A stretch of 64,000 nt of DNA from Candidatus Freyarchaeum deiterrae. Its GTDB lineage: Archaea > Asgardarchaeota > Jordiarchaeia > Jordiarchaeales > Jordiarchaeaceae. The notes below the pieces were generated by a model that saw only the letters and a list, made by a program, of their open reading frames with translations, was not told where the DNA came from and ran no database searches. The position numbers and the translations under genes are program-made. Numbering within the stretch: position 1 is the first letter of the stretch; every line of letters begins with the position of its first letter. The stretch lies in the NCBI GenBank assembly GCA_037305845.1, contig CP147778.1:160001-224000 (forward strand), given 5' to 3'. Positions 6,001-63,643 of this stretch are shown here, one piece after another.

Positions 6001-9000
6001 AAGTAGAAGCCCAAAAGGTTGTTTGTGGCGGTGTTGCCCGAAAGAGTGTTGTTCAAGCTGGAGTGCAGGCTGAAACCGTAGGCGTTGCTGTTTGCAGTGT
6101 TGCCCGAAAGAGTATTGTACGAGCTATTTTCCAAGAAGAAGCCGCAGTAGGCGTTGCTGTTTGCAGTGTTGCCCGAAAGAGTATTGTACGAGCTATTTTC
6201 CAAGAAGAAGCCGCAGTAGGCGTTGCTGTTTGCAGTGTTGCCCGAAAGAGTATTGTACGAGCTATTTTCCAAGAAGAAGCCGCAGTAGGCGTTGCTGTTT
6301 GCAGTGTTGCCCGAAAGAGTATTGTACGAGCTATTTACTAGGTAGAAGCCGTAATAATTGTTTGTGGCGGTGTTGTTTAGGATTGTGTTGCCCTGTGAAT
6401 AGTAAAGGATTAGACCGTTATAGCCCTGTGTTATGGTGTTGTTCTCAATCCAAGTGTTGTCCGCCCTTATTACAAGCCCATTTTCGTCTATCGATGATGA
6501 ACCATATCCACAGTACTCCACTCGGCTGTTGTTCATCTGGAATGTCGCGTTTTCGTACACTATGAAATAGTAGGGGTTAGCCGGGTTTATGGCGGTTATT
6601 ATGGAGGAATCGTTGATGTACATTCCCCCGTAAACCTTGACGCCGTACTGGACCGGGGTGTAGCCGTCATTGACGTTTAGTTTGCATTTGATAAGGTGAA
6701 GCTCACCGGTTTCCGTGATGGTGAGGTCTCCGTCGAGGTTGATGTTGAGGTATTGTGAATAGTTGATTTCGGTTATTGTGGGGTTTGTCCAGGTGATGTT
6801 TGTGTATTGTTGTTGGATGGTTTCCACATGCGAAGTGGACATGTCAACTATTCTTGGATTATTCGAAAATTCGGCTACCGCCCAAGGAGACGAATACCAC
6901 ACCGTGACATGGGTAATGCTCTCAGTCATCTGGTTTATTCCTGTGAATGTCTTGTAAGGGACAGCAATCCAGGGGGTGAGACCGTTAGGGTCGGTGGTGT
7001 CGTTTAAACCCCCGAAAAATGATGTAGCGTACACCGTTGTTCCATCGGTCTCAACCATAATCTCTACGCCAGGGAAAGGAAGCCCCCGAACGTCTGTGAC
7101 TTCCACACGCAGGTAGTTCTCCCAAACACTACCAGTAAAATTATTACTAAAACTGTAGAAAGACCAATAGTATCCCGTGATAAAGTTTATGGCAATGTTA
7201 CCCGAAAGATTATTGTACGAGCTATAGGACAGGTTGAAGCCGGCCCAGCCGCAGCCGAATACGACGTTGTTCGCGGCGGTGTTATTAGAAAGAGTGTTAT
7301 ACGTGCTTCGGTAAAGATAGAAACCGATGCTGCTGTCTGTGGCAGTGTTACCGGAAAGAGTATTATACGAGCTAGAGCTAGGGCTATAGGGCGGGAAGAA
7401 ATAGTACGAGCTAGAGTACAGGTAGAAACCGTAATCAGTGTTGTTGGTTGCGGTGTTACCCGAGATAGTATTATACGAGCCATCCACCAGGTAGAAACCG
7501 GTGCCGCTGTTGTTTGCAGTGTTACCGGAAAGAGTATTATACGAGCTAGAGCTATAGAGCGGGTAGAAACCGTACGAGCTAGAGTACAGGTAGAAACCGT
7601 AATCAGTGTTGTTGGTTGCGGTGTTACCCGAGATAGTATTATACGAGCCATCCACCAGGTAGAAACCGATGCTGCTGTCTGTGGCAGTGTTATCAGAAAG
7701 ATTGTTATTCGAGCTGTCTTCAAGGTAAAAGCCGTAGTTATAGTTGTTGGTTGCGGTGTTACCAGAAAGAGTATTATACGAGCTATCCACCAGGTAGAAA
7801 CCGATGCTGCTGTCTGTGGCAGTGTTATCAGAAAGATTGTTATTCGAGCTGTCTTCAAGGTAAAAGCCGTAGTTATAGTTGTTGGTTGCGGTGTTACCAG
7901 AAAGAGTATTATACGAGCCATCCACCAGGTAGAAACCGTTGTAGCCGTTGTTGTTTGCGGCGTTACCAGAAAGATTGTTGTTCGAGCTGGAGTATAGGCC
8001 GAAGCCGTTGCAGTAGTTGTTTGCGGCGTTACCAGAAAGAGTATTATACGAGCTGTCTTCAAGGTAGAAGCCGTAGTAGAAGACGTAGTAGTAGCCGTAG
8101 TAGTAGCCGTTGTAGTTGTTGTTTGCTGTGTTACCCGAAAGAGTATTGTAAGAGCTGGAGTACAGGCCGAAGCCGTAGTAGTAGTTGTTTGCGGTGTTAC
8201 CAGAAAGAGTGTTATACGAGCTGTCTTCAAGGTAGAAGCCGTAGTAGTAGCCGCCGTAGTAAAGGTAGTAGTAGTTGTTGTTGTTTGCTGTGTTACCCGA
8301 AAGAGTATTGTTCGAGCTGAAGTATAGGCCGAAGCCGTAGTAGTAATTGTTTGCGGTGTTACCAGAAAGAGTGTTATACGAGCTGTCTTCAAGGTAGAAG
8401 CCGTAGTAGTCGCCGGAATAGTACCAGTTGTTGGTGTTGTTTGCGGTGTTACCCGAAAGAATATTGTACGAGCTATAGGACAGGTAGACACCGTAGTAGT
8501 TGTTGTCTACGGTGTTACCCGAAAGAATATTGTACGAGCTGGACTCAAGGTAGACACCGTAGTAGCCGTTGTTGTCTACGGTGTTACCTGAAAGAGTATT
8601 GTTCGAGCCATAGGACAGGTAGACACCGTATTCATTGTTGTTGTTTGCGGTGTTACCCGAAAGAATATTATTGTAAGAGCTATCTACTAGGCAGAAGCCG
8701 TAGCCGTTCTCGGTTGCAGTGTTACTTGAAAGAGTATTGTAAGAGCTAGAGTCTATGTAGACCCCGTAGTAGTTGTTGGTTGCGGTGTTAACCGAAAGAG
8801 TGTTATACGAGCTACTTTCTAGGCAGAAGCCGTACAAGTTGTTGTTTGTGGCGGTGTTATTAGAAAGATTGTTGTACGAGCTGTCTTTTAGGTAGAAGCC
8901 GTAATCGTTGTTGTTTGCGGCGTTACCAGAAAGAGTGTTGTTTGAGCTATCTACTAGGTAGAAACCAACGCCGTTTGTTGTAGCGGTGTTACCCGAAAGA

Positions 9001-11564
9001 AGATTGTTTAAACTATCTACTAGGTAGAAGCCGTCGTAGTAGTAGTAGTGGTAAAAGACGTTTACGGTGTTGCCTGAAAGAGTGTTGTTAGAGCCGTAGG
9101 ACAGGTAGAAACCGTAGTAGTTGTTGTTTAAGGTGTTGCCTGAAAGAGTGTTGTTAGAGCCGTAGGAAAGGTAGACGCCGGCACCATTATTGTTTGCGGT
9201 GTTACCCGAAAGAGTATTGTAAGAGCTGGAGTTTAGGTAGAAGCCTATACCCTCGCTAGTGGTTGCTAGGAAATAGGCTCGGAGATGATTGTATCTTCCA
9301 ACGTCTCCTTCTGCCATCAGTACATTATTAATGTATATTCTTGCATGCCAAGCGTAGTTCGGCACGTAACCAGAGCACGCATACTCGACGTAGTGACTCC
9401 CTAAGGAAACGTGTATTATAGTGGTGTAGGTAAATGAATAACCAGTTCCATCTTCGTCGAACATGTAGCCTAGATAATTCCAGAAGTCATTGGGAAGAGG
9501 TTGATCTAAAGACAAGCCATGTAACCTCCCGCAGGTGTCAGTGGTATTATGCGCCACAATGGTGATATTCACGGTAAAGTCGTAGATTTTTGCGATGACT
9601 GCGGTGTTGCCCGAGAGAGTGTTGTACGAGCAACTTTCCAAGTAGAAGCCTTCACGGCTATTATCTGTGGCGGTGTTACCAGAGAGAGTATTATACAAGC
9701 TATATACTAGGTAGAAGCCGGCACCATTATTGTTTGCTGTGTTAGCTGAAAGAGTATTGCTCAAGCTTCGGGACAGGTAGAAGCCGTAATCGTTGTTGTT
9801 TGCAGTGTTAGCTGAAAGAGTATTGCTCAAGCTACTTTCCAGGTAGAAGCCCCATCTGTTGTTTGTGGCAGTGTTACCCGAAAGAGTGTTGTTTGAGCTT
9901 TGGTAAAGGTAGAAGCCGTAATCGTTGTTGTCTGCGGCGGTATTACCAGAAAGAGTATTATATGAGCTTTTTTCTAAGAAGAAGCCCCAAAAATTATTGT
10001 CTGCTGTATTATTCGAAAAAGTGTTGTACAAGCTAGATGACAGACAAAAGCCGTAGTGGTTGTTGTTTGTGGCGGTGTTGCCCCAAAGATTATTATACGA
10101 GCTAATTTCCAAGAAGAAGCCGTAATCGTTGTTGTCTGCGCTGTTGCCCGAGAGAGTGTTATTTGAGCTTCGGGACAGGTAGAAGCCGTAATCGTTGTTG
10201 TCTGCGGCGGTATTACCAGAGAGAGTATTGTACGAACTATAGGACAGGGTGAAACCGTAGTACACGTTGTTTGTGACAGTGTTACCCGAAAGAGTATTGC
10301 TCAAGCTTCGGGACAGGTAGAAGCCGTAATCGTTGTTGTCTGCGGTGTTACCAGAGAGAGTATTATCGTTCGAGTTATATAGCAGGTAGAAGCCGTAGTA
10401 GTTGTTGGTTGCGGTGTTGCCCGAAATATTGTTGTTCGAGCTATCTACTAGTGAGAAGCCCTGGCCAGTGTTGTTTGTGGCGATGTTACCAGAAAGATTG
10501 TTGTACGAGCCGTTTTCCAGGTGGAAGCCGTCTTGCCCATTTTTGTTTGCGGTGTTACCAGAAAGAGTGTTGTACGAGCTATCTACTAGGTAGAAGCCCC
10601 ATCTGTTGTTTGTGGCAATGTTACCAGAAAGAGTATTGTACAAGCTAGAGTACAGGTAGAAACCTTCACCAGTATTGTTTGTAGCAATGTTATCCGAAAC
10701 AGTATTGTACAAGCTGTTTTCCAGTTGGAAGCCATCGTGGACGTTGTTGTTTGCGGTGTTACCAGAAAGAGTATTGTTTGAGCTATCTACTAGGTAGAAG
10801 CCCCATCTGTTGTTTGTGGCAGTGTTACCTGAGAGAGTATTGTTTGAGCTTTGGTAGAGGTAGAAGCCGAGGTTGTTGTTTGTGGCTGTGTTGTTTAGGA
10901 TTGTGCTGCCCTGTGAATTGTAGAGGATTAGACCGTTGTAGCCCTGTGTTATGGTGTTGTTCTCGATCCATGTGTTCTCCGTGTATACTGTGAGCCCTTG
11001 TTGGTCGGGCCAGGAGCCGCTGTTGTCTCCGCAGTACTTCACCCGGCTGTTGTTCATCTGGAAGGTTGCGTTTTCGTAGACTGTGAAGTAGTAGGGGTTA
11101 GCCGGGTTGATGGCGGTTATTGCGGAGGATTCGTTGATGTACAGTCCTCCGTAAACCTGGACGCCGTACTGGATGGGAATGATGCCGTTGTTCACGTTTA
11201 GTATACAGTGGATGAGGTGCAGCTCTCCGTTTTCCGTTATTTTGAGGTTTCCGTTGAGGGTTATGTTGAGGTCTTGTGAATAGTTGACGTCGCTTATTGT
11301 GGGGTTTGTCCAGGTTACGTTCGTGTAGGAATCAAATGGGTCATTTGGGTTGTTTGTGTCTTTGCTGGCTGGGTTGTTTTGGCTGTTTAGGGGATTTGGG
11401 ATGGCTGATTTGTTGTTTAGTGTGAAGATTAGTAGTTGTTGCTGTTGGTTTTGTGTTTGGTTTTGTGCTGTGATTATTGCAGCTATTGGGAGTATTATTA
11501 TTAGCAGTAGCGCGATAATCGTTATTATGATTTTTATGGGTGATTTCATTTTTTTATTTCCCAT
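1..11564 (-). CDS. Giant secreted/surface protein (>3850 aa, 3' end outside window): signal/TM segment, two right-handed parallel beta-helix (NosD/CASH-like) blocks, Ig-like domain, about 5 CARDB domains, about 5 C-terminal Ig-like (OmpL47-type) repeats
   Basis: Manual translation starts MGNKKMKSPIKIIITIIALLLIIILPIAAII; dozens of GFYLxxSSxNTLSGNTAxNN repeats; CARDB-type VDPxNxIxExNExNN motifs; DKTPPVTAISLxGxxGLNGW repeats. The frame at 11564 matches the frame at position 5, and the ORF track lists no terminated ORF in this frame. Alternative start 11549. Confidence 0.9.
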   Translation of the reverse strand, partial: MGNKKMKSPIKIIITIIALLLIIILPIAAIITAQNQTQNQQQQLLIFTLNNKSAIPNPLNSQNNPASKDTNNPNDPFDSYTNVTWTNPTISDVNYSQDLNITLNGNLKITENGELHLIHCILNVNNGIIPIQYGVQVYGGLYINESSAITAINPANPYYFTVYENATFQMNNSRVKYCGDNSGSWPDQQGLTVYTENTWIENNTITQGYNGLILYNSQGSTILNNTATNNNLGFYLYQSSNNTLSGNTATNNRWGFYLVDSSNNTLSGNTANNNVHDGFQLENSLYNTVSDNIATNNTGEGFYLYSSLYNTLSGNIATNNRWGFYLVDSSYNTLSGNTANKNGQDGFHLENGSYNNLSGNIATNNTGQGFSLVDSSNNNISGNTATNNYYGFYLLYNSNDNTLSGNTADNNDYGFYLSRSLSNTLSGNTVTNNVYYGFTLSYSSYNTLSGNTAADNNDYGFYLSRSSNNTLSGNSADNNDYGFFLEISSYNNLWGNTATNNNHYGFCLSSSLYNTFSNNTADNNFWGFFLEKSSYNTLSGNTAADNNDYGFYLYQSSNNTLSGNTATNNRWGFYLESSLSNTLSANTANNNDYGFYLSRSLSNTLSANTANNNGAGFYLVYSLYNTLSGNTATDNSREGFYLESCSYNTLSGNTAVIAKIYDFTVNITIVAHNTTDTCGRLHGLSLDQPLPNDFWNYLGYMFDEDGTGYSFTYTTIIHVSLGSHYVEYACSGYVPNYAWHARIYINNVLMAEGDVGRYNHLRAYFLATTSEGIGFYLNSSSYNTLSGNTANNNGAGVYLSYGSNNTLSGNTLNNNYYGFYLSYGSNNTLSGNTVNVFYHYYYYDGFYLVDSLNNLLSGNTATTNGVGFYLVDSSNNTLSGNAANNNDYGFYLKDSSYNNLSNNTATNNNLYGFCLESSSYNTLSVNTATNNYYGVYIDSSSYNTLSSNTATENGYGFCLVDSSYNNILSGNTANNNNEYGVYLSYGSNNTLSGNTVDNNGYYGVYLESSSYNILSGNTVDNNYYGVYLSYSSYNILSGNTANNTNNWYYSGDYYGFYLEDSSYNTLSGNTANNYYYGFGLYFSSNNTLSGNTANNNNYYYLYYGGYYYGFYLEDSSYNTLSGNTANNYYYGFGLYSSSYNTLSGNTANNNYNGYYYGYYYVFYYGFYLEDSSYNTLSGNAANNYCNGFGLYSSSNNNLSGNAANNNGYNGFYLVDGSYNTLSGNTATNNYNYGFYLEDSSNNNLSDNTATDSSIGFYLVDSSYNTLSGNTATNNYNYGFYLEDSSNNNLSDNTATDSSIGFYLVDGSYNTISGNTATNNTDYGFYLYSSSYGFYPLYSSSSYNTLSGNTANNSGTGFYLVDGSYNTISGNTATNNTDYGFYLYSSSYYFFPPYSPSSSSYNTLSGNTATDSSIGFYLYRSTYNTLSNNTAANNVVFGCGWAGFNLSYSSYNNLSGNIAINFITGYYWSFYSFSNNFTGSVWENYLRVEVTDVRGLPFPGVEIMVETDGTTVYATSFFGGLNDTTDPNGLTPWIAVPYKTFTGINQMTESITHVTVWYSSPWAVAEFSNNPRIVDMSTSHVETIQQQYTNITWTNPTITEINYSQYLNINLDGDLTITETGELHLIKCKLNVNDGYTPVQYGVKVYGGMYINDSSIITAINPANPYYFIVYENATFQMNNSRVEYCGYGSSSIDENGLVIRADNTWIENNTITQGYNGLILYYSQGNTILNNTATNNYYGFYLVNSSYNTLSGNTANSNAYCGFFLENSSYNTLSGNTANSNAYCGFFLENSSYNTLSGNTANSNAYCGFFLENSSYNTLSGNTANSNAYGFSLHSSLNNTLSGNTATNNLLGFYLHQSLNNTLSGNTANNSNGGFYLSQSSNNNLSRNIALNCTVGYYWSSDSGNNDFTGSFFGNYLLVNATDSLNYAISGVDVKVETNRTVWYATPHFGGSDPRTDLDGLTPQIVVPYSIFTGNDTMTDCTPVVTVWNSTAWFFNNPRTVNMSTPHMETFMADTLPPIVTITSPSNGAFINVTSVDITWTGSDNGVIDHYEVKLDAGSWINVGNTTTSYTLSLVVGYHTFYVTAFDMAHNYATESVSFAVGPDFAISPQNITLGKVGGTVYIYATVTNLGADYTGPITVIFFDIDENGNSTQIGSNQTIGGLLHGESKTVSVSWTFDQFHTVQVVVDPGNTIEEIDETNNVAQKNIYASRPAVQSVSSEFGVWKRSDYLGTFIVRVDVINKFTAVILDNEGPDLVVKVVFELNCITYDATRVSGGSWECALNMGSLTTSQNTLKITAYDQLGLISETKTITIHAIELPKWFKWPNQQIEWYPAEQKYVTVNIESIGYQFTYLDKTGEDASQALPGLGDTLKTLSFASEYSLNKTLIYYVNGVAKYRMEATYKGSIGGAEVSRFDRAEPTVDNDLNIQDYIMTTSVTASYTQREGVGFGFFIKLYFGSTEIDLGLGFRLGGDISIGVNYTTQKKYVGNSLDPIWTASYIGIMLRGTLYGELNALFVGARIEASVYTNIGIVLNQTKDETSPHLQSSYGDPLFGLRLQVSAWAFGIPFVPQTVVWEWRSPASLIPVEPSSATNYTSPRIASDNHGNAMMVWVQGRTDGNNTYPNICYSTWNGTGWGTSGYVSNDDYYNFDPALTYDSNGNVIAVWSRVPSNVTPQSDNLVDLFKNQEIVYSIWNGSAWSAPQQITNNTFADGSAAVTAGPDGKVVAVWVRDTDSNISTTNDTDLYYSVWDGTQWSPEAALTNNSFMDYSVSLAHDSKGRVIACWVRDLDGNLSTTSDTQLMYAMWDGTSWGPEGLVTTLNETKESPSVTFDRNDNALVTWVGGNESVYSLYCAYMDNTTGTWSEPEIVHEDPSFISKPTINVDQKNTAVIVWRGFVYNATENYFNGQICYATKNLSDPNAIWSGVKYLTNDNETNWMPSACITQPSNNLLVAWDKEGVVSNLTHPIKPDLALDSSDITFSNNYPSEGEIVNIMARVRNIGDVDAYNVRVDFYDGDPNSGGFLIGTQRINYLPYDGEVNVTCPWIAKPGTHNIYVVIDSLGSISEIDETNNVAYKSISTLPDLTVSPTDITFSKYNPSAGETITISATIHNQGGTSAENVLVQFYSNSVLIGSQTIPLLGSNDSTTVSTAWTAAAGQNNITVVIDPNNVIAEFNKENNVASTTMSILPDLEATGISLSGHELLPGENVTITTEIRNSGNADATGVLIEFFDGNPYINGTLIYSETTNLPMGGTHTSSFVWTPPQGIHQVFVVVNRENLIAESNETNNVQYDELVVKLVPDLTVLVPEIMMKPGYVKIIAPIQNIGEAGATGVVVALYDGDPATGGTMINGATILNIAAGETVNVSLTVYHPPVNEYLYIVVDPENTITESNETNNEATIKYIADLTPPTTTIDLSGTPGLNGWFVSPVTVNLTASDDLSGVDMTQYSFDNTTWNIYTGPFTITTEGVTTLYYNSTDNAGNVENTSTEVIMIDMTPPVTAISLSGTPGLNGWFTSNVDINLTANDNVSGIAMTEYSFDNTTWNTYTEPLTITAEGVTTVYYKSIDVAGNVETAKSETIKIDKTLPVTAISLSGVLGLNGWYISNVNVTLSPIDNTSGVNITEYSFDGTTWVTYTGPFTLTAEGSTTVYYNSTDNAGNMEATKTEIIKIDKTPPVTAISLNGTSGLNGWYTSNVNFYLSATDNVSGLNITEYSFDNTTWNTYKGPFTITAEGITTIYYRSTDNAGNVETTKSETIKIDKTPPTTVLIIGTHYTDGNGSIYVTSSTVFALTATDATPGSGVANTYYRINSGNWTLYVGAFNITGPIGTYTIDYYSVDNAGNKETPKTTTVIMEEAFQGC
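6078..6336. repeat. Perfect 69-bp tandem repeat, about 3.75 copies (one 23-aa beta-helix coil each)
   Basis: Unit GTAGGCGTTGCTGTTTGCAGTGTTGCCCGAAAGAGTATTGTACGAGCTATTTTCCAAGAAGAAGCCGCA starts at 6078, 6147, 6216 and 6285 (partial). Confidence 0.95.
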
Positions 11565-11760
11565 CTTTGGGTATTTTTTTTCATGGCGCCCCTCCTCGGC
11601 GCTCCCCTCTGTTACTGTCGAGAGGTTTATCCCCCTCTTCATGGTAACGCTTGTATAAGTCTGGTTCCCCTCACTTATTTTCCCGAAACCCCGCATTTCC
11701 GATTTCCAAGATAACTGAGAAGGTAACTTCTTAAACCGTCTATCATTCATATAAATTTTT
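11565..11760 (-). promoter_or_regulatory. Promoter and structured 5' leader of the giant surface protein gene
   Basis: TTTATA box near 11750-11755 on the minus strand; three hairpins (11655-11678, 11611-11648, 11586-11602); uORF starting at 11584. Confidence 0.5.
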
Positions 11761-53684: not shown

Positions 53685-53770
53685 ATTGCGCGATTCTAGT
53701 TGAATCTTATAAGATATAAAAGGATTTGAAAAATTAGTAATTTAGTATAATGGTAAAACTTATTAAATTT
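53685..53770 (+). promoter_or_regulatory. Conserved promoter, copy 0
   Basis: ATTGCGCGAT at 53685; CTTATTAAAT TATA element starts at 53759 (offset 74). Confidence 0.65.
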
Positions 53771-53789
53771 ATGTGTAAGTAGATTGATA

Positions 53790-54175
53790 ATCGAGTCCAA
53801 AATGTTTCCCAACTTAACCCGACAAATCTCAGACCCACCGGGAAACATTGACGGATGAGAAAACGAATCCAAAAATAAAAATGACAATGGTTGTCAACTC
53901 CCACGAAGAGTATATGCACCCACGCACCCGAAAATGCTTACCTGGGAAGGAAAAGGCCCGAGGGGACCAGGGGGATTCCCAGGCGAGCAACTCCATTTTC
54001 ATTAAAACCTCTAACTAGTCACAGATGTAACTTCTAAACTTTCCAGAATTTGGTGTTCTATACTCCATTATGGTTTGAAATGTGGGACATTGCACTGCTG
54101 GTAGGTGGCTTCACAACTTCCCGTGGGAACCGGCGAAGGTAATGTAATAACCCGAAAGATAATGAAAAATGGGAA
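53790..54175 (+). ncRNA. Putative structured ncRNA, divergent relative of the BHB RNAs
   Basis: No credible ORF; stems 53801-53810/53840-53849 (perfect 10 bp), 53935-53948/53976-53989 and 53993-54004/54160-54172; same promoter as copies 1-3. Ends approximate. Confidence 0.45.
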
Positions 54176-54318: not shown

Positions 54319-54897
54319 TTACCACATTTTTCCTTTGTAATGCTGCATTATGGGGCAACCGAGGCACTTTTTTTCTTTGTATCTCTTGCATTCGGTGCAA
54401 AGGTATTCGGATCCGCAGAGCGGTCTATCCATAATGTTTATTTTCATTTGGTAGGGAAGGTTTAGGTCCTTTGCGGCTGAAATTATAATGTTGAATTCGA
54501 CGTCTTTGACCTCTGGTAGTCGTCCTAGGTGGCATTCCACTACCGACTGGAGGGTTGATATATCCTCGCCTATGAGAAGCATGAAGACGCTATTTTTTCC
54601 TGATATTGTGAATCCGTTGAAGAAGTGTGGACAATTTTTGAAAATTTCCAATATTTTTTCGCTGTCTGTAGTGGAAACCTCGACTTTGGCAATATAGAGT
54701 CCCATTTTTAGGGGATTTACTCCGCAAATCCTCTGGAATACGCCCATCTCCTTCAGTTTTTTTAGCCTCATAGCTACTGAGGGTTGGGACAGCTTAATGA
54801 TCTCTGCTATTTGTTCCTGAGGAATATCTGGGTCTTCGCTCAGAAGCGATAATATCTCACGGTCTTTCTCATCCAGTTTAACTGCGGGCTCTGCCAT
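54319..54897 (-). CDS. Lrp/AsnC-family regulator with Cys-rich C-terminal extension
   Basis: LDEKDREILSLL..LSQPSVAMRLKKL HTH, RAM domain, C-x5-CxxC-x7-CxGCP tail. Confidence 0.92.
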   Translation of the reverse strand: MAEPAVKLDEKDREILSLLSEDPDIPQEQIAEIIKLSQPSVAMRLKKLKEMGVFQRICGVNPLKMGLYIAKVEVSTTDSEKILEIFKNCPHFFNGFTISGKNSVFMLLIGEDISTLQSVVECHLGRLPEVKDVEFNIIISAAKDLNLPYQMKINIMDRPLCGSEYLCTECKRYKEKKCLGCPIMQHYKGKMW

Positions 54898-54941: not shown

Positions 54942-55027
54942 ATTGCGCAATTTCCGTTAAATCAAATAATTTATAATGAATTTGGCTAAAATAATAATAA
55001 AATATATTAGTTATTTTTATTAAATAG
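54942..55027 (+). promoter_or_regulatory. Conserved promoter, copy 1 (divergent from lrp)
   Basis: Perfect palindrome ATTGCGCAAT 54942-54951; TTTATTAAATAG at 55016 (offset 74). Confidence 0.75.
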
Positions 55028-55044: not shown

Positions 55045-55400
55045 TACGAGAAGCATAGACAAAAACAAGTTTCAACTAACCACACAAAAACCAGGAGAAT
55101 CCACCTGGAAGGTTTAGAAAAACCGTCAAGAAAACTATTCCCCAAGAAAGTGCTATGGCTCCCGCTAAGCTTACTTGAGGGGTGGGCCCCGAATTGCTGG
55201 GGAGGAGGCCCCCCCTAAGTAAGCACAAACCTCGGATGGATGCGCTCAAACGAGAATGCAGTCGATGACTCACGAGTTTAGATGCGTGAATGAAAGAGCT
55301 TCGCAGGCTAGCAATAGTATTATGTTTATTGCTGACCACCCACCCTCTCTCCCTCGCACAGTCTGTGGAGCCCCATTAAACACGCACCCAAAACAGAGTG
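55045..55400 (+). ncRNA. BHB-containing structured ncRNA, copy 1 (predicted excised segment 55295-55379, 85 nt)
   Basis: GCGTG-AATG-AAA-14 bp helix...helix-CATT-AAA-CACGC (55284-55385); invariant 26-mer 55333-55358; upstream hairpin 55169-55224. Ends approximate. Confidence 0.75.
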
Positions 55401-55561
55401 ATTAAAAACGGACATGACAAGTTGTGCAGAAGTTTAACAAATGTTACTGAGAATAGAAACAAAGACCTGAACACAGAAAGAGACGAATCAACGCATGACC
55501 CTTTATGAAAAACATCATTAAAACTCAAGAAGTATAACTAAAAAGTTAAGGAGGCAAATGG

Positions 55562-55720
55562 ATGACAAATACTCTTACTATAAGAGAAAAAGCCACACTG
55601 GTAGTGGACTTCGATACCTGGAGAGACTTGAACCAGCTCAAAACCGAACTCGGTCTAAAAACCATTGACGATACCATAAAACATTTAATAAAAGAAAACG
55701 GTAACGGCGGCAAGAAGTAG
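55562..55720 (+). CDS. 52-aa ribbon-helix-helix-like protein (not in ORF track)
   Basis: MTNTLTIREKATLVVDFDTWRDLNQLKTELGLKTIDDTIKHLIKENGNGGKK; GGAGG SD at 55550. Confidence 0.7.
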   Translation: MTNTLTIREKATLVVDFDTWRDLNQLKTELGLKTIDDTIKHLIKENGNGGKK

Positions 55721-55841
55721 AAGCTTTCAAATGCAACGTACATCTATTCAATCTTTCTAGTAAAATGATGTATGCATAGTCAGTTCCTCTGTTTTGCACT
55801 ATCTTTTGATTGTAGAGGTGTAAAGGATTAGGTGAGAATGA

Positions 55842-55994
55842 ATGCCAGAAGTTTATTGTGAGATTAAGAAACGGAAGGTTGATGGGGGATTCTGCGCATA
55901 CATGTGTGAACTCCCAGAAACCGAAAAGAAGATCGCTTACAATCCCTTCAGAGGGATACAAACAGACTGCAGCTTCAGCAAGGAATCCTCATAA
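55842..55994 (+). CDS. 50-aa four-Cys small protein (not in ORF track)
   Basis: MPEVYCEIKKRKVDGGFCAYMCELPETEKKIAYNPFRGIQTDCSFSKESS; GGTGA SD at 55831. Confidence 0.55.
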   Translation: MPEVYCEIKKRKVDGGFCAYMCELPETEKKIAYNPFRGIQTDCSFSKESS

Positions 55995-56115
55995 ACAGAA
56001 GAAGTCAGTATAAATGCCAGATTAGGGCATAGTTCATTTTAGCGAGTCGTCTGCGGTTGAGGAGCATCCCGGCGCACTTTGCAGCCTTTTCTTAGCTATG
56101 CCGATCAATCTGCTA

Positions 56116-56481
56116 CTATTGTAAGTGTTCTTTGATTATACTTAGCAGGTTTTCAATTTTTATAGGTTTGAGTATGTAACCGTCTGCACCCTTGTTTACG
56201 GCTTCGATGGCGCTCCGCATTGTAGGATAGCCGGTAACCATAATTTTGACCATTTTGGGGCTGGCATCATTAATAGCAGCCAGAAGTTTTGTTCCTTCCA
56301 TGTCCGGAAGTCGAACGTCTATTAATGCTAGGTCGTAAGAATTGGTCTTGGTTTTTTCGATTGCTTCATTTCCATTTTCTGCCGTGTCGACGGTGTATCC
56401 TTCTTCTTCTAGTATTTTTGTTAGGATGCTTCTTATGCTTTCATCGTCATCGACAACAAGAATACTGGCAGGCCCACCCAT
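56116..56481 (-). CDS. Single-domain response regulator (receiver)
   Basis: ILVVDDD, LIDVRLPDMEG phospho-Asp, VTG, YILKP. Confidence 0.93.
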   Translation of the reverse strand: MGGPASILVVDDDESIRSILTKILEEEGYTVDTAENGNEAIEKTKTNSYDLALIDVRLPDMEGTKLLAAINDASPKMVKIMVTGYPTMRSAIEAVNKGADGYILKPIKIENLLSIIKEHLQ

Positions 56482-57004
56482 ACTACTCCCACCATTAATT
56501 TTTGTATTTGATTAGAAGATTTCCAAAGTCCCGCATTTTCCAATAGCGCCTTCCGCGTAGATCCATTCATAGTACATTTTTCGCAGTATCGAATAATAAT
56601 ATTTTATAAACCTTGCAAGAATCTACGCTGCACCGTTTTCTACTTTTTCTGAAAAGTCAAATTCTCCTATACGTATATAATCAATGGTTTTTCTTCAGAA
56701 ACTTTTATGGCTCCCAGATTTAATATTATTATTAATCAGTCTAATCATCTTTTTAAGGCGGAAAGCTTCATTTAACTGCCACACTTCTCCTATAAAAAAC
56801 TATTCAAAAAGTATAATAAAAAAGATATTTTATTCACGCTTTATAGATTTAAATGAGCGCTAATAGTTGAGAAATAAATTAGTAGACGATTATAATTGCA
56901 AAAATACAGGCTTCAAATGGAATTTAATTCGAATCTTGAACAGGTCCACAAACCATATCCAAAAGTTGAGGCTAAATTCCGGGGACAATACAGAGGAGCT
57001 AAAT

Positions 57005-59158
57005 ATGGGAAAATTGGTAGAGAAAACGGAACCCGTTAAAATGCGAAAATCAGGGATCGAAGTTCTGGGCGACATCCCTTGGGGAACACACCTCTGTCAA
57101 TTCTACGAAACCAAGGAAGACCTGCTCGATATTCTAGTGCCCTACTTCGCTGAGGGCCTAAGAGACAATGAATATTGTATATGGGTTACTGCCCCACCCT
57201 TGGACACCGAGGAAGCAAGGGCATCGCTTCAGGAAGCGGTTACCGAATTGGAAAATTATGTGGAGAAGGGGCAGATTGAGATTCTTCCATACACGGATTG
57301 GTATCTTCTCAATGGAGAGTTTGACGAGAACAGGGTTCTTAATGGATGGGTGGAGAAAGAGAAAAGTGCCCTCGAGAGGGGTTTTGAGGGAATACGTCTT
57401 ACGGGGAACTTTATTTGGAGTGAAAAGAAATTTTGGAAAAAGTTCGTAGCATATGACGCAAAAATTAGTGAAATAATTGGAAGGCACCGAATGATTGCTA
57501 TCTGCGCTTACTCTCTTGAGAAATGCACCGGAAACGATATTGCTGATGTTATAAGAAACCATGGGAACGCACTGATTAGAAAGGGAAAATCATGGTTCTT
57601 AGTTGAAGACAGTTCGAAACATAGATTGGAAGATAATAAAGTCGTTGGCAGCCTGACAAAGTTAATGAGAAGCGAAGAGAAATATCGGCAACTAATAGAA
57701 AATTTGAATGAAGGGATTTGGCTCATCGATAAGGAATCCAGGACTACCTTCTGCAATGAGCGTATTTCGGAGATTTTGGGATACACGGTGGACGAGATGA
57801 TTGGTAGGAATTTATTTTCGTTCATGGATGAACACGGTGTGGAGATTGCCAAAAAACTGTTAGAACGCCGCAGAGAGGGAGTAAGAGAGGATCATGATTT
57901 CGAATTTATTCGTAAAGATGGGGCAAGGATTTACACGCGTTTAGGTACGTCACCAATCATAGACGAAAATGGAAATTATGCTGGTGCGCTTGCTGCGGTC
58001 ATAGACATCACAGAACGCAGGCGTATGGAAGAAGAACTGGAGAATTCGGAAAAGCGTTATAAGGAACTGTTCAACAACACTGGTGACGCCATCTTCATCC
58101 ATGACTTGGAAGGTAAATTTCTAGAGGTTAACCGTGTAGCCTGTGAACGCCTCGGCTACAGCCGGGAAGAATTCCTACGGATGAGCCCAATGGACATAGA
58201 CACTCCAGAATATGCAGCCATAGTACCTGAACGGATGGAGGAGCTACGCCAGAAAGGTCAAATCATATTCGAAACGGCTCACTTGAGACGCGACGGCTGC
58301 GACTGCATCCGCATACCCACCGAACTGAGCAGTTGCCTCATTGAGTATGATGGAAAGCCAGCTATCCTCAGCATCGCCAGAGACATCACCGAGCGTAAGA
58401 GAATGGAGGAGGAGCTCAGACGTTACTCCGAGCACCTTGAGGAATTGGTCGAAGAGAGAACAAGAAAGCTGAGAGAAGCCGAGCGGATGGCCGCTATTGG
58501 TGAGACTGCGGCCATGGTGGGCCATGACCTCCGCAACCCGCTGCAGAGCATTTTCGGCTTACTTTATTTAGCTAATAAAAACTTGAATTCTCAAGCCACT
58601 TCAAATGGGAAACAGAAAAATGACTTGGCTGAGTTGTTGCAAACAATCGAGGGACAGGTGGACTACATGAACAAAATTGTTTCTGATCTAGAGGATTACG
58701 CGAAGCCAGTGAATCCCCAACTGGTTGCGACGAGCGTACACCAGCTAATCGATGACACATTCTCAGCGAGAACAATTCCTGAAAATGTTAGAGTCTACAT
58801 GGGAATTGAGGAGGACTTACAACTGGCGATTGACCCCACTATGATGCGGCGTGTATTAGCCAACTTGATTGAAAACGCAGTTCAAGCCATGCCAAACGGA
58901 GGCCAGCTGAAGATAAAAGCTTCCAAAAAGGGGGACTCTGTACTTATAGGTGTAGAGGACACAGGTGTGGGCATACCGGGAGAGAATCTGTCCAAACTTT
59001 TCCAGCCGCTATTCACCACCAAGGCTAAGGGGCAGGGGCTCGGATTAGCCGTCTGCAATAGGCTGGTGGAAGCCCATGGTGGCAGCATTACGGTGGAGAG
59101 TGAGGTGGGTAAAGGCTCAACCTTCACAGTCGAAATACCGCTTAAAAAGATGAATTAA
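57005..59158 (+). CDS. MEDS-PAS-PAS-HisKA-HATPase soluble histidine kinase
   Basis: GTHLCQFYET (MEDS), two PAS/PAC, GHDLRNPL, ENAVQAM, DTGVGI, FTTK..GQGLGL; start ATG 57005 after GAGGAG. Confidence 0.93.
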   Translation: MGKLVEKTEPVKMRKSGIEVLGDIPWGTHLCQFYETKEDLLDILVPYFAEGLRDNEYCIWVTAPPLDTEEARASLQEAVTELENYVEKGQIEILPYTDWYLLNGEFDENRVLNGWVEKEKSALERGFEGIRLTGNFIWSEKKFWKKFVAYDAKISEIIGRHRMIAICAYSLEKCTGNDIADVIRNHGNALIRKGKSWFLVEDSSKHRLEDNKVVGSLTKLMRSEEKYRQLIENLNEGIWLIDKESRTTFCNERISEILGYTVDEMIGRNLFSFMDEHGVEIAKKLLERRREGVREDHDFEFIRKDGARIYTRLGTSPIIDENGNYAGALAAVIDITERRRMEEELENSEKRYKELFNNTGDAIFIHDLEGKFLEVNRVACERLGYSREEFLRMSPMDIDTPEYAAIVPERMEELRQKGQIIFETAHLRRDGCDCIRIPTELSSCLIEYDGKPAILSIARDITERKRMEEELRRYSEHLEELVEERTRKLREAERMAAIGETAAMVGHDLRNPLQSIFGLLYLANKNLNSQATSNGKQKNDLAELLQTIEGQVDYMNKIVSDLEDYAKPVNPQLVATSVHQLIDDTFSARTIPENVRVYMGIEEDLQLAIDPTMMRRVLANLIENAVQAMPNGGQLKIKASKKGDSVLIGVEDTGVGIPGENLSKLFQPLFTTKAKGQGLGLAVCNRLVEAHGGSITVESEVGKGSTFTVEIPLKKMN

Positions 59159-59304
59159 GCTGAACAAGAAAAGTTATAGATTTTAAAAAATCTCTCTAAA
59201 ACTGGAGCTAAAAAAATAACTTAAATCTCAAAAACAAGCATCAACAAATTTTTAAATTAGAGTGCCTCGAGGAGTAGCAGCCTAAGCTAATAGTCCGGTA
59301 ATTT

Positions 59305-59366
59305 GCTATTGGAAATTTATGGCTCTTCGTATAGAAGAGTTGATGTTTCATGCACTTTTGTGCAGT
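59305..59366 (-). pseudogene. Decayed remnant of the lrp 5' end
   Basis: Reads HETSTLLYEEP* versus REILSLLSEDPD in the intact gene, at the equivalent position relative to the promoter. Confidence 0.5.
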
Positions 59367-59418
59367 ACAAGAATCTGTTTTGCTATTTTTCATGAGGTTT
59401 CTGTTGAATTATAAGAAT

Positions 59419-59504
59419 ATTGTGTAATTTCAATTAAATTAAATAATTTATAACAAAATTTTCAATAATAATAATAAATTATCATAGTTAGTTTTATTAA
59501 ATAG
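59419..59504 (+). promoter_or_regulatory. Conserved promoter, copy 2
   Basis: ATTGTGTAAT at 59419; TTTATTAAATAG at 59493 (offset 74). Confidence 0.7.
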
Positions 59505-59521
59505 TTTTGCTCTAATTAAAA

Positions 59522-59873
59522 TACAAGGAGCTTTAAAAAAATCTCAGAACCGTCCACTTGGGAGGCATACAAGGACCAGCAGGGAATTCCCCCGAGAAAA
59601 CGCTGGCTCCAGCTCTGCTTGCGGGAAGGGGGATTTAAAACTGCTTGGGGCGGAGGACTCCTAAATGTTGGGAGGAGGCCCCCCACCTTAAGCCCGCGTC
59701 CTCCAGAATGGGCGACTTCAGTGATCCAGTAATACAGAACTAAAAGTTTAAAGCGTGAATGAAAGAGTTTCACAGACCCCAAATAATATTAAGATAATGG
59801 ATAGATGACCACCCACCCTCTCTCCCTCGCACGGTCTGTGAAGCTCCATTAAACACGCACCCAAAACAGAGTG
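59522..59873 (+). ncRNA. BHB-containing structured ncRNA, copy 2 (predicted excised segment 59764-59852, 89 nt)
   Basis: BHB 59753-59858 with inner helix GAGTTTCACAGACC/GGTCTGTGAAGCTC; invariant 26-mer 59806-59831; upstream hairpin 59643-59693. Ends approximate. Confidence 0.75.
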
Positions 59874-60035
59874 CCTAAAAAGACTAAAATGACGAATTCC
59901 ATAGCGCATCAGAGAGAGCACAAGCGGTATGAATAAAAACAACTAACCAAAAAACGAATTGAAGTATGACTTTTACGAAAAAAATCATTAAAGCTTTTGA
60001 AAAGTTGATTAAAAAAAAATTAGTGATGAACATAA

Positions 60036-60188
60036 ATGCTCAAAAGGAATAATAGAATAGAAAAAACTACACTGGTAGTGGACCTTAATGATTTAATCTT
60101 GAAAGAACACAGTGCTCTGAAGCAGATCCTGAAAGAAATCACAAAGGATTACTATTCAATACAGCGAAAGAACACAATCTCTCAGTAA
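60036..60188 (+). CDS. 50-aa ORF partly homologous to the RHH-like protein (possibly degenerate)
   Basis: MLKRNNRIEKTTLVVDLNDLILKEHSALKQ...; shares EK(A/T)TLVVD and the upstream ATGAC..TTTA.GAAAAA.ATCATTAAA motif with 55562..55720. Confidence 0.4.
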   Translation: MLKRNNRIEKTTLVVDLNDLILKEHSALKQILKEITKDYYSIQRKNTISQ

Positions 60189-60271
60189 ACGTTGAAAGCA
60201 CGGCTGTAAAAAAGGAGTAATTCTTACAAAACATTCAATTAGACTAAAAAGTCTGGAAGCAAGAAGACGCG

Positions 60272-60352
60272 CCTGTAAAGATTATTGTCGACCACTATGA
60301 AAGTGTAAGGAAAGATTTAACAAACATGAGCGAAAGGAGAATACGTTTTTGA
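60272..60352 (+). pseudogene. Possible receiver-domain remnant
   Basis: PVKIIVDHYESVRKDLTNM resembles PASILVVDDDESIRSILTKI; stops early and has no start. Confidence 0.35.
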
Positions 60353-60815
60353 AGAAAAAACGATCGAGCCCGAGCCCCAAACGCTTTAATAGTTTTAGCG
60401 TCTCTGCCCTCTGATTTTAAACTATTTCATTTCATTAAGTGTTTTATAGCTTGGTCAATGGTTTTAGACTGGGTTCGGTTTTTAGCTTGCTCAAAGCTCT
60501 CCAAGTATAAATTCTGAATACGACCAATCGGAATTTATTACTTCGAAGGATGCCTATAATTTTTATAATATTTCCAATTAATTTTTATCAAATACGCAAC
60601 CCTTTTAAATGAAGACTTCTTGCAGTTTTATTAAATAAGAACTATTTAGAATATTATGATAAAATAGTTAGTGTTAATTAAGCGGTAAGAGTTAGAAATA
60701 GGGTATATAAAAAATTTTTAAAAAACCTCACTGGTATGAGAAGCTAACATTAAACCAGTTGGCATCATATTTAGAGTTAAGAGAAGTCTGAGGGAAGAAA
60801 GGAAGAGGTTAAGGT

Positions 60816-62594
60816 ATGGTAAAATTGGTGGAGGAGATAGAAAATTCTGCCTTGCGAAAATCTGGAATTGAAGTTCTGGGCGACATCCCTTGGGGAACAC
60901 ACCTCTGTCAATTCTACGAAACTAAAGAAGATATGAAAGATATTCTGGTGCCCTACTTCGCTGAGGGCTTAAGAAACAATGAGATGTGTATGTGGGTGAC
61001 CTCAATACCTTTGGGAGTCGAAGAAGCAACAGCGGCGCTTCGGAAAGCGGTTCCTAACTTGGAATATTACGTGGAGAAGGGGCAGATTGAGATTCTTCCG
61101 TACACGGAATGGTACCTTCTCGGCGGAGAGTTTGATATGGACAGAGTTCTGAATGGATGGATTGAGAAGGAAAAAAGCGCTATTGAGCGCGGGTTTGATG
61201 GGTTGCGTCTTACTGGAAACACTTTCTGGCTTCAGCGGAGCCTCTGGCAAAGCTTCGTGGACTATGAAGCAAAAATAAACGAGGTGATCGGGGAGCACCG
61301 AATGGTCGCCATTTGTACTTACTCGCTTAAAAAATGCACCACCAGCGATGTTATCGACGTCATGAGAAACCATGAGAGCACATTGATTAGAAAGGGAAAA
61401 TCCTGGTTCCTAGCTGAAGATGTCACAAAGCGTAAAATGGCGGAGAATAGGGCTACAGAGAGCCGGACACAGTTGAAGAGAAGCGAAGAGAAATACCGCT
61501 TACTAATAGAAAATTTGAATGAAGGGGTTTGGGTTTACGATAATAAAATCTTGACCTCTTTTGTCAATGAGCGCATGGCTGAGATGTTGGGATACACCGT
61601 GGATGAAATGATTGGTAAACATATATTTTCATTCATGAATGAAAAGGGAGTGGAGATTGCCAAAAAAAAGTTAGAAAGCCGGAAACGGGGAATCGCCGAA
61701 GTTCATGAATTCGAATTTGTCCGAAAAAATGGGACTAGAATTTACACGCAAATAGGTGAATCGCCTATCATAGGCGAAGATGGAAATTTTGCTGGAGCAA
61801 TTGCTGCCGTCACAGATATCTCAGAACACAGGCGAATGGAGGACGAGCTTAGAAATTATTCCGAGCGCCTAGAGGAGTTGGTTGAAGAGAGGACAAGAAA
61901 GCTGAGAGAAGCCGAGCGGATGGCTACAGTAGGTGAGCTGGCTGCTACAGTGGGCCATGATCTCCGCAACCCGCTGCAGAGCATTTTCGGCTTACTTTAT
62001 TTAGCTAATAAAAATTTGAATCCTCAAGCCACTTCAAATGGGAAACAGAAAAATGACTTGGGCGAGTTGTTGCAAACAATAGAGGGACAGGTTGACTACA
62101 TGAGAAAAATTGTTTCTGACCTTGAGGATTACGCGAAGCCAGTGAAGCCTCAACTGGTTGAGACCAGCTTACACCAGCTAATCGATGAAACATTCTCAGC
62201 GATAACAATTCCAGAGAAGGTTCAGGTTTCTATCGGAATTCAAGAGGACTTTCCACAGCTGATGGTTGACCAAGCAATGATGCGACGTGTATTGGACAAC
62301 CTAGTTACAAACGCAGTTCAAGCCATGCCAAACGGAGGTCGACTGACGATAAAAGCATCCGAAACAGATGACAATGCGCTCATAATCGTAGAGGACACGG
62401 GTGTAGGCATACCTGAAGAGAATCTCCCAAAGATTTTCCAGCCACTGTTTACCACAAAGCCTAAAGGTCAAGGGTTCGGATTGCCGGCCTGCAAGAGGCT
62501 GGTGGAAGCCCACGGTGGCAGCATCACGGTGGAGAGTGAGGTGGGTAAAGGCTCAACCTTCACAGTCAAAATACCACTCAGAAATATGAAGTAG
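60816..62594 (+). CDS. MEDS-PAS-HisKA-HATPase soluble histidine kinase
   Basis: Close paralog of 57005..59158 with one PAS domain; GHDLRNPL and N/G1/F/G2 boxes. Confidence 0.94.
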   Translation: MVKLVEEIENSALRKSGIEVLGDIPWGTHLCQFYETKEDMKDILVPYFAEGLRNNEMCMWVTSIPLGVEEATAALRKAVPNLEYYVEKGQIEILPYTEWYLLGGEFDMDRVLNGWIEKEKSAIERGFDGLRLTGNTFWLQRSLWQSFVDYEAKINEVIGEHRMVAICTYSLKKCTTSDVIDVMRNHESTLIRKGKSWFLAEDVTKRKMAENRATESRTQLKRSEEKYRLLIENLNEGVWVYDNKILTSFVNERMAEMLGYTVDEMIGKHIFSFMNEKGVEIAKKKLESRKRGIAEVHEFEFVRKNGTRIYTQIGESPIIGEDGNFAGAIAAVTDISEHRRMEDELRNYSERLEELVEERTRKLREAERMATVGELAATVGHDLRNPLQSIFGLLYLANKNLNPQATSNGKQKNDLGELLQTIEGQVDYMRKIVSDLEDYAKPVKPQLVETSLHQLIDETFSAITIPEKVQVSIGIQEDFPQLMVDQAMMRRVLDNLVTNAVQAMPNGGRLTIKASETDDNALIIVEDTGVGIPEENLPKIFQPLFTTKPKGQGFGLPACKRLVEAHGGSITVESEVGKGSTFTVKIPLRNMK

Positions 62595-62831
62595 AGTGAA
62601 CAAGGAAAGTATCCAGATTATGGATAATGAAATTCAAGTCTAAAAAGCACCAACAAATATTAAAAAATAAAAGTATTCAAACTGAGGATTTGATTTTTGG
62701 GTTCCGCGTTAATTAATAATATCAACTTTAAATTTTCAGCCAGTAAGGTCATAATCCTGCCCCTCTTGCCTAAGGAGAAGCTTGATCCTTTTTTTTTATT
62801 AGTTATGGGTTTCCTCTGAATTACAAAGAAT

Positions 62832-62917
62832 ATTGCGCAATTCTAGTTAAATCGAATAATTTATAGTGAAATTTATTACACAAATTATGAATTATAATAG
62901 GCAAATTTATTAAATAG
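62832..62917 (+). promoter_or_regulatory. Conserved promoter, copy 3
   Basis: ATTGCGCAAT 62832-62841; TTTATTAAATAG at 62906 (offset 74). Confidence 0.75.
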
Positions 62918-62934
62918 TTACTAGAGATATATAC

Positions 62935-63260
62935 AAAGAAGAAAACACTTAGCCCAACTACAAATACAACAGAGTTACACTAATCCTGGCGGTATGGAAT
63001 GGCGGAGGAAATTACAGGGCTCCCAAAAGTGCTTCAACGGAGGATCCCTCAAATGCTGGGAGGAGGAGGGGTCCTCCCGGAAAGCACACGCTTCAACTGA
63101 AGACTGCACTGGAATTGGTAATTCGGAGTTTAACGGGTTGGTTTAACGCGTGAATGAAAGAGTTTCACAGACCCCAAATAAAATTATGATAATGATGACC
63201 ACCCACCCTCTCTCCCTCGCAGGTCTGTGGAGCTCCATTAAACACGCACCCAGAACAGAT
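62935..63260 (+). ncRNA. BHB-containing structured ncRNA, copy 3 (predicted excised segment 63159-63241, 83 nt)
   Basis: BHB 63148-63247; invariant 26-mer 63196-63221; upstream hairpin 63029-63087. Ends approximate. Confidence 0.75.
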
Positions 63261-63295: not shown

Positions 63296-63529
63296 ATGGT
63301 TGAAGTTGTTAAGACATTTGGTGAGTTAAAATATCTGGCTGAGAATTGGATAAAGGTGTATGATTTAAAGTGTCCTGTGTGTGGCTCACCGGTCTTCGTT
63401 AGACCATTCAATGTGTTCTCGGTAGCGGCAGAGAGTGGTCTTATTGAGATTGAAATGGAGCAGATATGCCAGAATTCAGAATGTGGTTATAGTGCAATCA
63501 GATTTTATGATATTCAAATTCACGAATAA
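63296..63529 (+). CDS. Small zinc-ribbon protein
   Basis: CPVCG ... CQNSECGY; GGAGTGA SD; starts about 50 nt after BHB copy 3. Confidence 0.75.
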   Translation: MVEVVKTFGELKYLAENWIKVYDLKCPVCGSPVFVRPFNVFSVAAESGLIEIEMEQICQNSECGYSAIRFYDIQIHE

Positions 63530-63643
63530 TTCTTGAATTCCTAAACCGATATTTATATTGAATGTGTTACCACAGCAGAAATGTTTTTTGATTGGTTTAG
63601 TGAATAAGCTTAATGTCTATATGTTTATGGTTTACTATTATTA

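Follow-up and report, generated by a model that had tools for sequence, protein, structure and literature searches.

Three copies of an uncatalogued RNA, almost certainly a conserved RNA gene on the strength of its covarying structure, were revealed in a 64,000-nucleotide (nt) stretch of the Candidatus Freyarchaeum deiterrae genome. This stretch (hereafter, the window) covers positions 160001-224000 of contig G000 (GenBank CP147778.1), the single 3,576,204-bp contig of the host genome. Each gene (approximately 330 to 400 nt) is laid out as a promoter, a long hairpin, a linker of approximately 60 nt, and a bulge-helix-bulge (BHB) domain enclosing an intron, which is 81 to 93 nt long across the family. 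The best explanation overall, which we favor tentatively, is that the gene gives rise to a ring-shaped regulator of the anti-Shine-Dalgarno type, possibly masked in its precursor by pairing between the loop of the hairpin and the loop of the intron. The structural features of the three copies are listed below by window position.

55169..55224, + strand: upstream hairpin of copy 1 (fold z, -3.19; covariation)
55195..55208, + strand: purine-rich, Shine-Dalgarno-like motif of copy 1
55284..55385, + strand: canonical BHB domain of copy 1
55295..55379, + strand: predicted 85-nt excised (circular) intron of copy 1 (from BHB geometry; putative cleavage)
55333..55358, + strand: 26-nt C/U-rich loop of copy 1 (proposed partner strand, 55344-55358)
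59643..59693, + strand: upstream hairpin of copy 2, the weakest of the three (fold z, -1.0; motif largely paired within its own stem)
59666..59678, + strand: purine-rich motif of copy 2
59753..59858, + strand: canonical BHB domain of copy 2 (predicted 89-nt intron, 59764-59852)
59806..59831, + strand: 26-nt C/U-rich loop of copy 2
63029..63087, + strand: upstream hairpin of copy 3 (fold z, -2.4)
63054..63066, + strand: purine-rich motif of copy 3
63148..63247, + strand: canonical BHB domain of copy 3 (predicted 83-nt intron, 63159-63241)
63196..63221, + strand: 26-nt C/U-rich loop of copy 3

An original prediction for this DNA had placed hairpins at these three sites, about 60 nt before each BHB, and an invariant 26-mer in the introns. 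Both were found as described: the hairpins end 60, 60, and 61 nt before the BHB in copies 1, 2, and 3, respectively, and the 26-mer occurs at only three sites in the 3.58-Mb genome, even allowing 5 mismatches. The hairpins are closed by GCUU/AAGC in copies 1 and 2 and by GUGCUU/AAGCAC in copy 3. In all three copies, the BHB comprises a 4-bp helix between two 3-nt bulges in the canonical orientation, with flanking stems.

Using the adjacent gene for an Lrp/AsnC-family regulator as an anchor, we compiled 15 distinct full sequences and 1 truncated sequence of the family from six GTDB genomes and several assemblies. A covariance-model search of 151 Asgard genomes, in which 24 candidates per genome were scored, detected the RNA in 6/6 genomes of the genus (Jordarchaeaceae/Freyarchaeia) and in 0/145 other Asgard genomes. 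In the BHB alignment of 15 sequences, 94% of the cells were paired and 11 cells carried a two-sided change, located in the outer stem and helix; the scores were far above those of slid controls, and both 3-nt bulges were retained in the 15 sequences. The upstream hairpin showed two-sided changes at 5 of its 10 consensus pairs across the relatives. Because the hairpin and the BHB both covary, both domains represent real structure. A BHB-only pattern gave four matches in metagenomes, one of which was genuine (L014, on the same contig as L017); the other three, which lacked the inner stem and both motifs, were rejected. No element was found in the viral contigs searched, and a loose loop pattern gave matches at the control level, none of them inside a BHB.

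An Rfam search of the element matched no family, and a literature search, incomplete in coverage, found no description of this RNA. An intron-containing tRNA was rejected on the basis that ARAGORN finds no tRNA and that neither a D arm nor a T arm is present in the flanks. Box C/D or H/ACA guide RNAs (box-like words single and unconserved) and SECIS and T-box elements (required motifs absent or unconserved) were rejected as well, in each case also without an Rfam match. Neither an "empty pre-rRNA" nor a coding function was retained: the 16S and 23S flanks have no sequence in common with the element, and a signal-peptide-like frame through the copy-1 intron meets early stops in the other copies.

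By analogy with known BHB introns, the intron is probably excised in this genome, which encodes two splicing endonucleases (PF01974). In complete Freyarchaeia/Atabeyarchaeia genomes, 92 to 95% of tRNAs are intron bearing (PMC11291895). In the mechanism that we propose, each copy would be a non-coding RNA gene with its own promoter, from whose transcript the splicing endonuclease would excise the intron and a ligase would close the ring, as in known BHB chemistry. The ring would be the effector: its C/U-rich loop would serve as a seed of the anti-Shine-Dalgarno type for G-rich regions at translation starts, in the manner of C-rich small RNAs of bacteria. The hairpin loop would mimic a Shine-Dalgarno site within the RNA and could pair with only one of two partners at a time, either a short UC(n)A segment in the leader or linker or the intron loop (approximately 8 to 10 bp, in all lineages but one). 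Where it forms, pairing with the intron loop would conceal the seed within the precursor, and excision would abolish this pairing; BHB folding would not depend on it. The complete scheme of a splicing-activated RNA, in which the mimic shuts the seed, the endonuclease frees a stable ring that represses mRNAs in trans, and the hairpin loop switches over to pairing with the leader, seems unlikely.

According to the original prediction, the hairpins share a conserved apical motif that could form about 12 pairs with the intron loop in a kissing contact. The core of the motif is invariant in all 16 sequences, with or without an intron partner, although its AAwU part was not retained in the relatives. 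Moreover, the motif lies only partly in the loop: the mean unpaired probability of GGGAGG was 0.57, 0.18, and 0.77 in copies 1 to 3, and in the consensus its final AGG is taken up by the pairs that close the hairpin itself. Duplex folding yielded 13, 12, and 12 pairs (-21.0, -17.0, and -18.9 kcal/mol) in copies 1 to 3, and the complementarity was in the top 0.1 to 0.3% relative to genomic windows. The 6-bp core GGGAGG/UCUCCC was intact in 11 sequences from approximately five lineages, and three substitutions in the contact keep the pairing as wobbles. The partner strand was predicted to be open (0.91 to 1.00) in 9/11 sequences. After opening both strands, the contact formed by the loops only was still energetically possible, with net values of -7 to -11.5 kcal/mol in 10/11 and only -1.3 in copy 2 (duplex plus opening energies, pseudoknot penalty left out). 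Copies 1 and 3, together with 8 relatives, are predicted to have partners that are both single-stranded and complementary; copy 2 is marginal. Additionally, in an unbiased scan for extra helices, the contact took first place in 5 of the 10 partner-bearing sequences examined and second place in another 2.

Several observations weigh against the contact or against the wider reading. When the C/U-rich loop was shuffled, P values were 0.035, 0.070, and 0.040 for copies 1 to 3 and 0.13 to 0.49 for the relatives; because shuffled loops bind equally well or better at such values, most of the match is composition. Two events break pairs of the contact, five sequences lack its first pair, and the invariant U of the motif finds no match in it. 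Covariation between the two motifs across homologs, by which the prediction was to be checked, did not appear (zero two-sided compensatory changes). The last of the 12 pairs use bases that close the hairpin itself and so compete with its stem, which leaves a realistic helix of 8 to 10 bp (a 6- to 7-bp core plus 2 to 3 bp). GRCCACCC is the sole element of the intron loop common to the whole family, and four genomes are without the UCCC part; these genomes, which belong to one clade, keep CUGGGAGGAGG exactly, and their intron loop cannot pair with it. The central BHB helix contains a C-A or C-C mismatch in this clade, and its predicted pairing probability is low even in canonical copies (0.12 to 0.30 here). 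With both motifs held open, the BHB pairing probabilities (central helix and inner stem) were unchanged, and there is therefore no competing fold able to gate the BHB. The RNA was lost at this locus in one lineage (L025), and no conserved trans target was found. Formation of the contact in the precursor of this genome is a possibility that falls only a little short of probable, and it is rather doubtful that masking matters for function.

In the partner-less clade (L040-L043; G001, G003, G004, and G005), the loop-loop binding energy was -8.5, no better than that of shuffles. Within the intron of this clade, a hairpin forms that shows compensatory changes and whose loop displays GGCCACCCACC. 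The clade has also lost the GC pairing extension of the motif and the perfect central BHB helix, and the base of its upstream hairpin is 11 to 13 bp, versus 15 to 25 elsewhere; the BHB outline persists. In a tree of the Lrp regulators (root within the family unresolved), the partner-bearing sequences fell on five branches and the four partner-less genomes formed one clade (100/99), so that a single loss is the simplest reading.

A competing second partner of the hairpin loop, overlooked by the original prediction, is new here. In 13 of the 16 sequences, the UG(n)A of the loop has an exact UC(n)A complement of equal run length in the leader or linker. The sequence UUCCCCA is present at -58/-59, inside an invariant 15-nt block, for all four loops with 4 Gs; CUCCCA is present at -35 in copy 3 and its orthologue; and CCUCCCA is present at approximately +45 in three partner-less genomes (7 bp; shuffle P, 0.001 to 0.002). 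Two of these segments lie in the window.

55138..55144, + strand: UUCCCCA of the leader, which could form 7 bp with the copy-1 loop in place of the intron contact (in the invariant block of the four 4-G sequences)
63020..63025, + strand: CUCCCA of the leader, which could form 6 bp with the copy-3 loop in place of the intron contact

The two pairings are mutually exclusive, and any switch would thus be the hairpin loop's choice of partner. Alternatively, the G-rich loop and the nearby UC(n)A strand may constitute a local pseudoknot of the 5' domain, with the intron-loop match as a compositional by-product. The local pairing engages the invariant U that is mismatched in the intron contact, and it accounts for the clade whose intron cannot pair. 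However, the position of the partner varies between lineages, it is absent in copy 2, L002, and L045, and its net energy is weaker than that of the intron contact in copy 1 (-6.2 versus -10.5) and copy 3 (-3.6 versus -11.5). The local partner was moreover a post hoc finding, with a chance of 0.02 to 0.2 per sequence among related sequences. We consider this alternative rather improbable. If the intron contact were not real, the family would still be real and uncatalogued, and the match would reduce to a G-rich/C-rich coincidence beside a local pseudoknot.

An anti-Shine-Dalgarno-type ring would act in a genome that relies heavily on Shine-Dalgarno sites (1057 versus 271 of 2459 open reading frames [ORFs]). 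The hairpin motif is a strong Shine-Dalgarno mimic, and the intron loop contains anti-GGUG pieces and, in most lineages, anti-GGAG pieces. Binding of the 26-mer averaged -11.7 at start regions versus -8.9 at coding controls, a difference that is partly circular because starts were chosen by Shine-Dalgarno score. Nearly the same C-rich tract was found in a second, unrelated small RNA (G000:2805053-2805134, + strand; L074:1453-1534) that has no hairpin partner, which suggests that the tract has a job in trans. This second RNA has a strong B recognition element (BRE)-TATA promoter, a closing stem of 13 bp in which compensatory changes occur, and an open pyrimidine loop of approximately 47 nt that is invariant and whose 3' part nearly equals that of the intron loop. 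Its exact 23-nt core was present in 5/6 genomes of the genus and 0/295 other Asgard genomes, and it had no Rfam match.

Individual target candidates were rejected. One of them, a 16-nt match upstream of cas1, falls within a coding region, and 30% of shuffles produce a match of this kind. For the helix-44 strand of 16S rRNA, binding energies were -21 to -27 kcal/mol among the 11 sequences with an intron partner but only about -8 in the other clade, and other rRNA sites did equally well. The start of the neighboring response-regulator gene ranks 12th of 3010 here and is not conserved in L017. Separately, the 16S rRNA gene (L046, G000:1804896-1806517) is approximately 140 nt longer than the model and carries an insertion of approximately 32 nt with a C/U-rich tract in the helix-45 loop, absent from G004. 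In an intergenic region (G000:1064530-1064690), G/A-rich tract repeats alternate with GC-rich hairpins, and one strand is complementary to the C-rich loop over 13 to 14 nt.

Both loops could also be binding sites (decoys) for a protein or the ribosome that do not pair together in vivo. The purine motif is invariant in 16/16 sequences whatever the partner and is predicted to pair with the 16S 3' tail (8 pairs, -12.4), and the C-rich tract recurs in the unrelated small RNA. On the other hand, the motif is not followed by a start codon, no protein emerged as a candidate, and the wobble-neutral changes fit pairing. We judge the decoy interpretation unlikely.

A further alternative concerns the gene downstream of the RNA.

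55562..55720, + strand: small ORF of 52 amino acids (aa) with a strong Shine-Dalgarno site (55548-55554), conserved behind the ancestral-type copy

A Pfam search with this ORF gave no match; it falls in the Atlas RHH_1 cluster (score, 0.90), which we take as a lead only to a ribbon-helix-helix-like protein. Its orthologues are 52 to 61 aa long. Behind copy 2, the small ORF is broken (window 59950-60330), and copy 3 is followed by a different small ORF with cysteines (window 63299-63530). A small ORF approximately 160 nt 3' of the RNA in nearly every ancestral-type locus would suit an element that is the 5' leader of a small downstream regulator, its expression tuned by intron removal, for which HVO_1309 of Haloferax volcanii offers a precedent (PMC7714728). 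Nevertheless, the RNA core outlasts its neighboring ORFs, persisting at loci with a decayed or replacement ORF (copies 2 and 3, the second copy of L017, and L019), the C-rich loop pairs weakly with the ORF start site (-9 to -13), and a U-rich tract separates the RNA from the ORF. A leader of this kind is accordingly an explanation to which we give little credence. Least likely of all, and held by us to be very improbable, is the suggestion in the original prediction that the contact controls BHB folding or endonuclease cleavage as a true gating switch: 12 to 13 pairs are possible in the three copies, the arms are of like length (15 to 25 bp versus approximately 21 bp) so that the loops could meet, and the partner, the long hairpin, and the perfect BHB helix were lost together in one clade, but the purine and C-rich motifs have no bases in common with the BHB stems, BHB probabilities do not respond to their opening, the BHB outline persists without the partner, and two-sided covariation is absent.

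Each of the three copies in the window is preceded by a TATA-like box and a palindromic site, as follows.

54319..54897, - strand: Lrp/AsnC-family regulator gene, divergent from copy 1 (Pfam HTH_AsnC-type; synteny)
54942..54951, unstranded: palindromic operator-like site upstream of the copy-1 promoter, common to approximately 10 promoters in the genome
55016..55026, + strand: TATA-like box of copy 1, invariant across the three copies and present in orthologues
59493-59503, + strand: TATA-like box of copy 2, invariant across the three copies
62906-62916, + strand: TATA-like box of copy 3, invariant across the three copies

The Lrp gene is divergent from the RNA in nearly all orthologous loci, and we infer that Lrp binds at the palindromic site. 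The neighbors of copy 1 also include a response regulator and MEDS-PAS histidine kinases (Pfam). The same operator and TATA promoter is found at six more sites (G000:527194, 611214, 614354, 952081, 3319772, and 3422567), which are probable members of the Lrp regulon; two of them precede similar small proteins, longin/roadblock-like by eye. At window positions 53685-53990, a fourth promoter of this type is followed by a GCUUAC-closed hairpin (approximately 53936-53990) with neither purine motif nor BHB; this may be the remnant of a fourth copy. At the other end of the window (3-11750, - strand), an ORF of >3900 aa with many 66- to 69-nt and 264-nt repeats runs off the window.

Very few natural substrates of the splicing endonuclease beyond tRNA and rRNA are known, i.e., HVO_1309 and cbf5 (PMC7714728). 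A conserved, multicopy, and apparently regulated gene for an RNA with a perfect BHB would mean that tRNA-type splicing also produces regulatory circles in Asgard archaea, which are closely related to eukaryotes, and if the self-masking contact is true, splicing would be the on-switch of a small RNA. The HVO_1309 intron is a BHB intron in a 5' untranslated region that is excised and circularized (PMC7714728). The RNA described here likewise has a BHB that belongs to neither a tRNA nor an rRNA, in what would be a transcribed leader, and is predicted to release a short circular intron. Unlike HVO_1309, it persists without a fixed downstream gene, exists in three copies, and combines a conserved C-rich loop with a G-rich hairpin upstream. 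With the BHB introns of archaeal pre-tRNA and pre-rRNA, their circles, and the cbf5 mRNA intron, it shares the 5-bp stem, the 4-bp helix, the two 3-nt bulges, and the inner stem (PMC7714728, PMC12558985). In contrast to those introns, there is no tRNA body, no rRNA, no likeness to rRNA flanks, and no conserved frame across the junction. The circular signal recognition particle (SRP) RNA of Thermoproteus likewise comes from a gene of its own and functions as a circle formed at a BHB; the present element differs in having no SRP features or Rfam match and a predicted ring of only 81 to 93 nt.

With respect to function, LhrC, a multicopy small RNA (sRNA), acts through a UCCC-seed mechanism (PMC4132741). 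As in the Gram-positive C-rich sRNAs LhrC1-5, RsaE, and RNAIII, the element has sibling copies and a single-stranded UCCC tract able to pair with G-rich ribosome-binding sites (PMC4132741), and it resembles LhrC-type sRNAs in its regulated promoter beside two-component genes. However, there is no homology, and LhrC-type sRNAs are linear, have proven targets, and lack a splicing step and an internal Shine-Dalgarno mimic; conversely, UCCC is not universal in the Asgard family. By analogy, LhrC would be the closest functional model for this RNA, and the leader intron of HVO_1309 would be the closest model for its processing.

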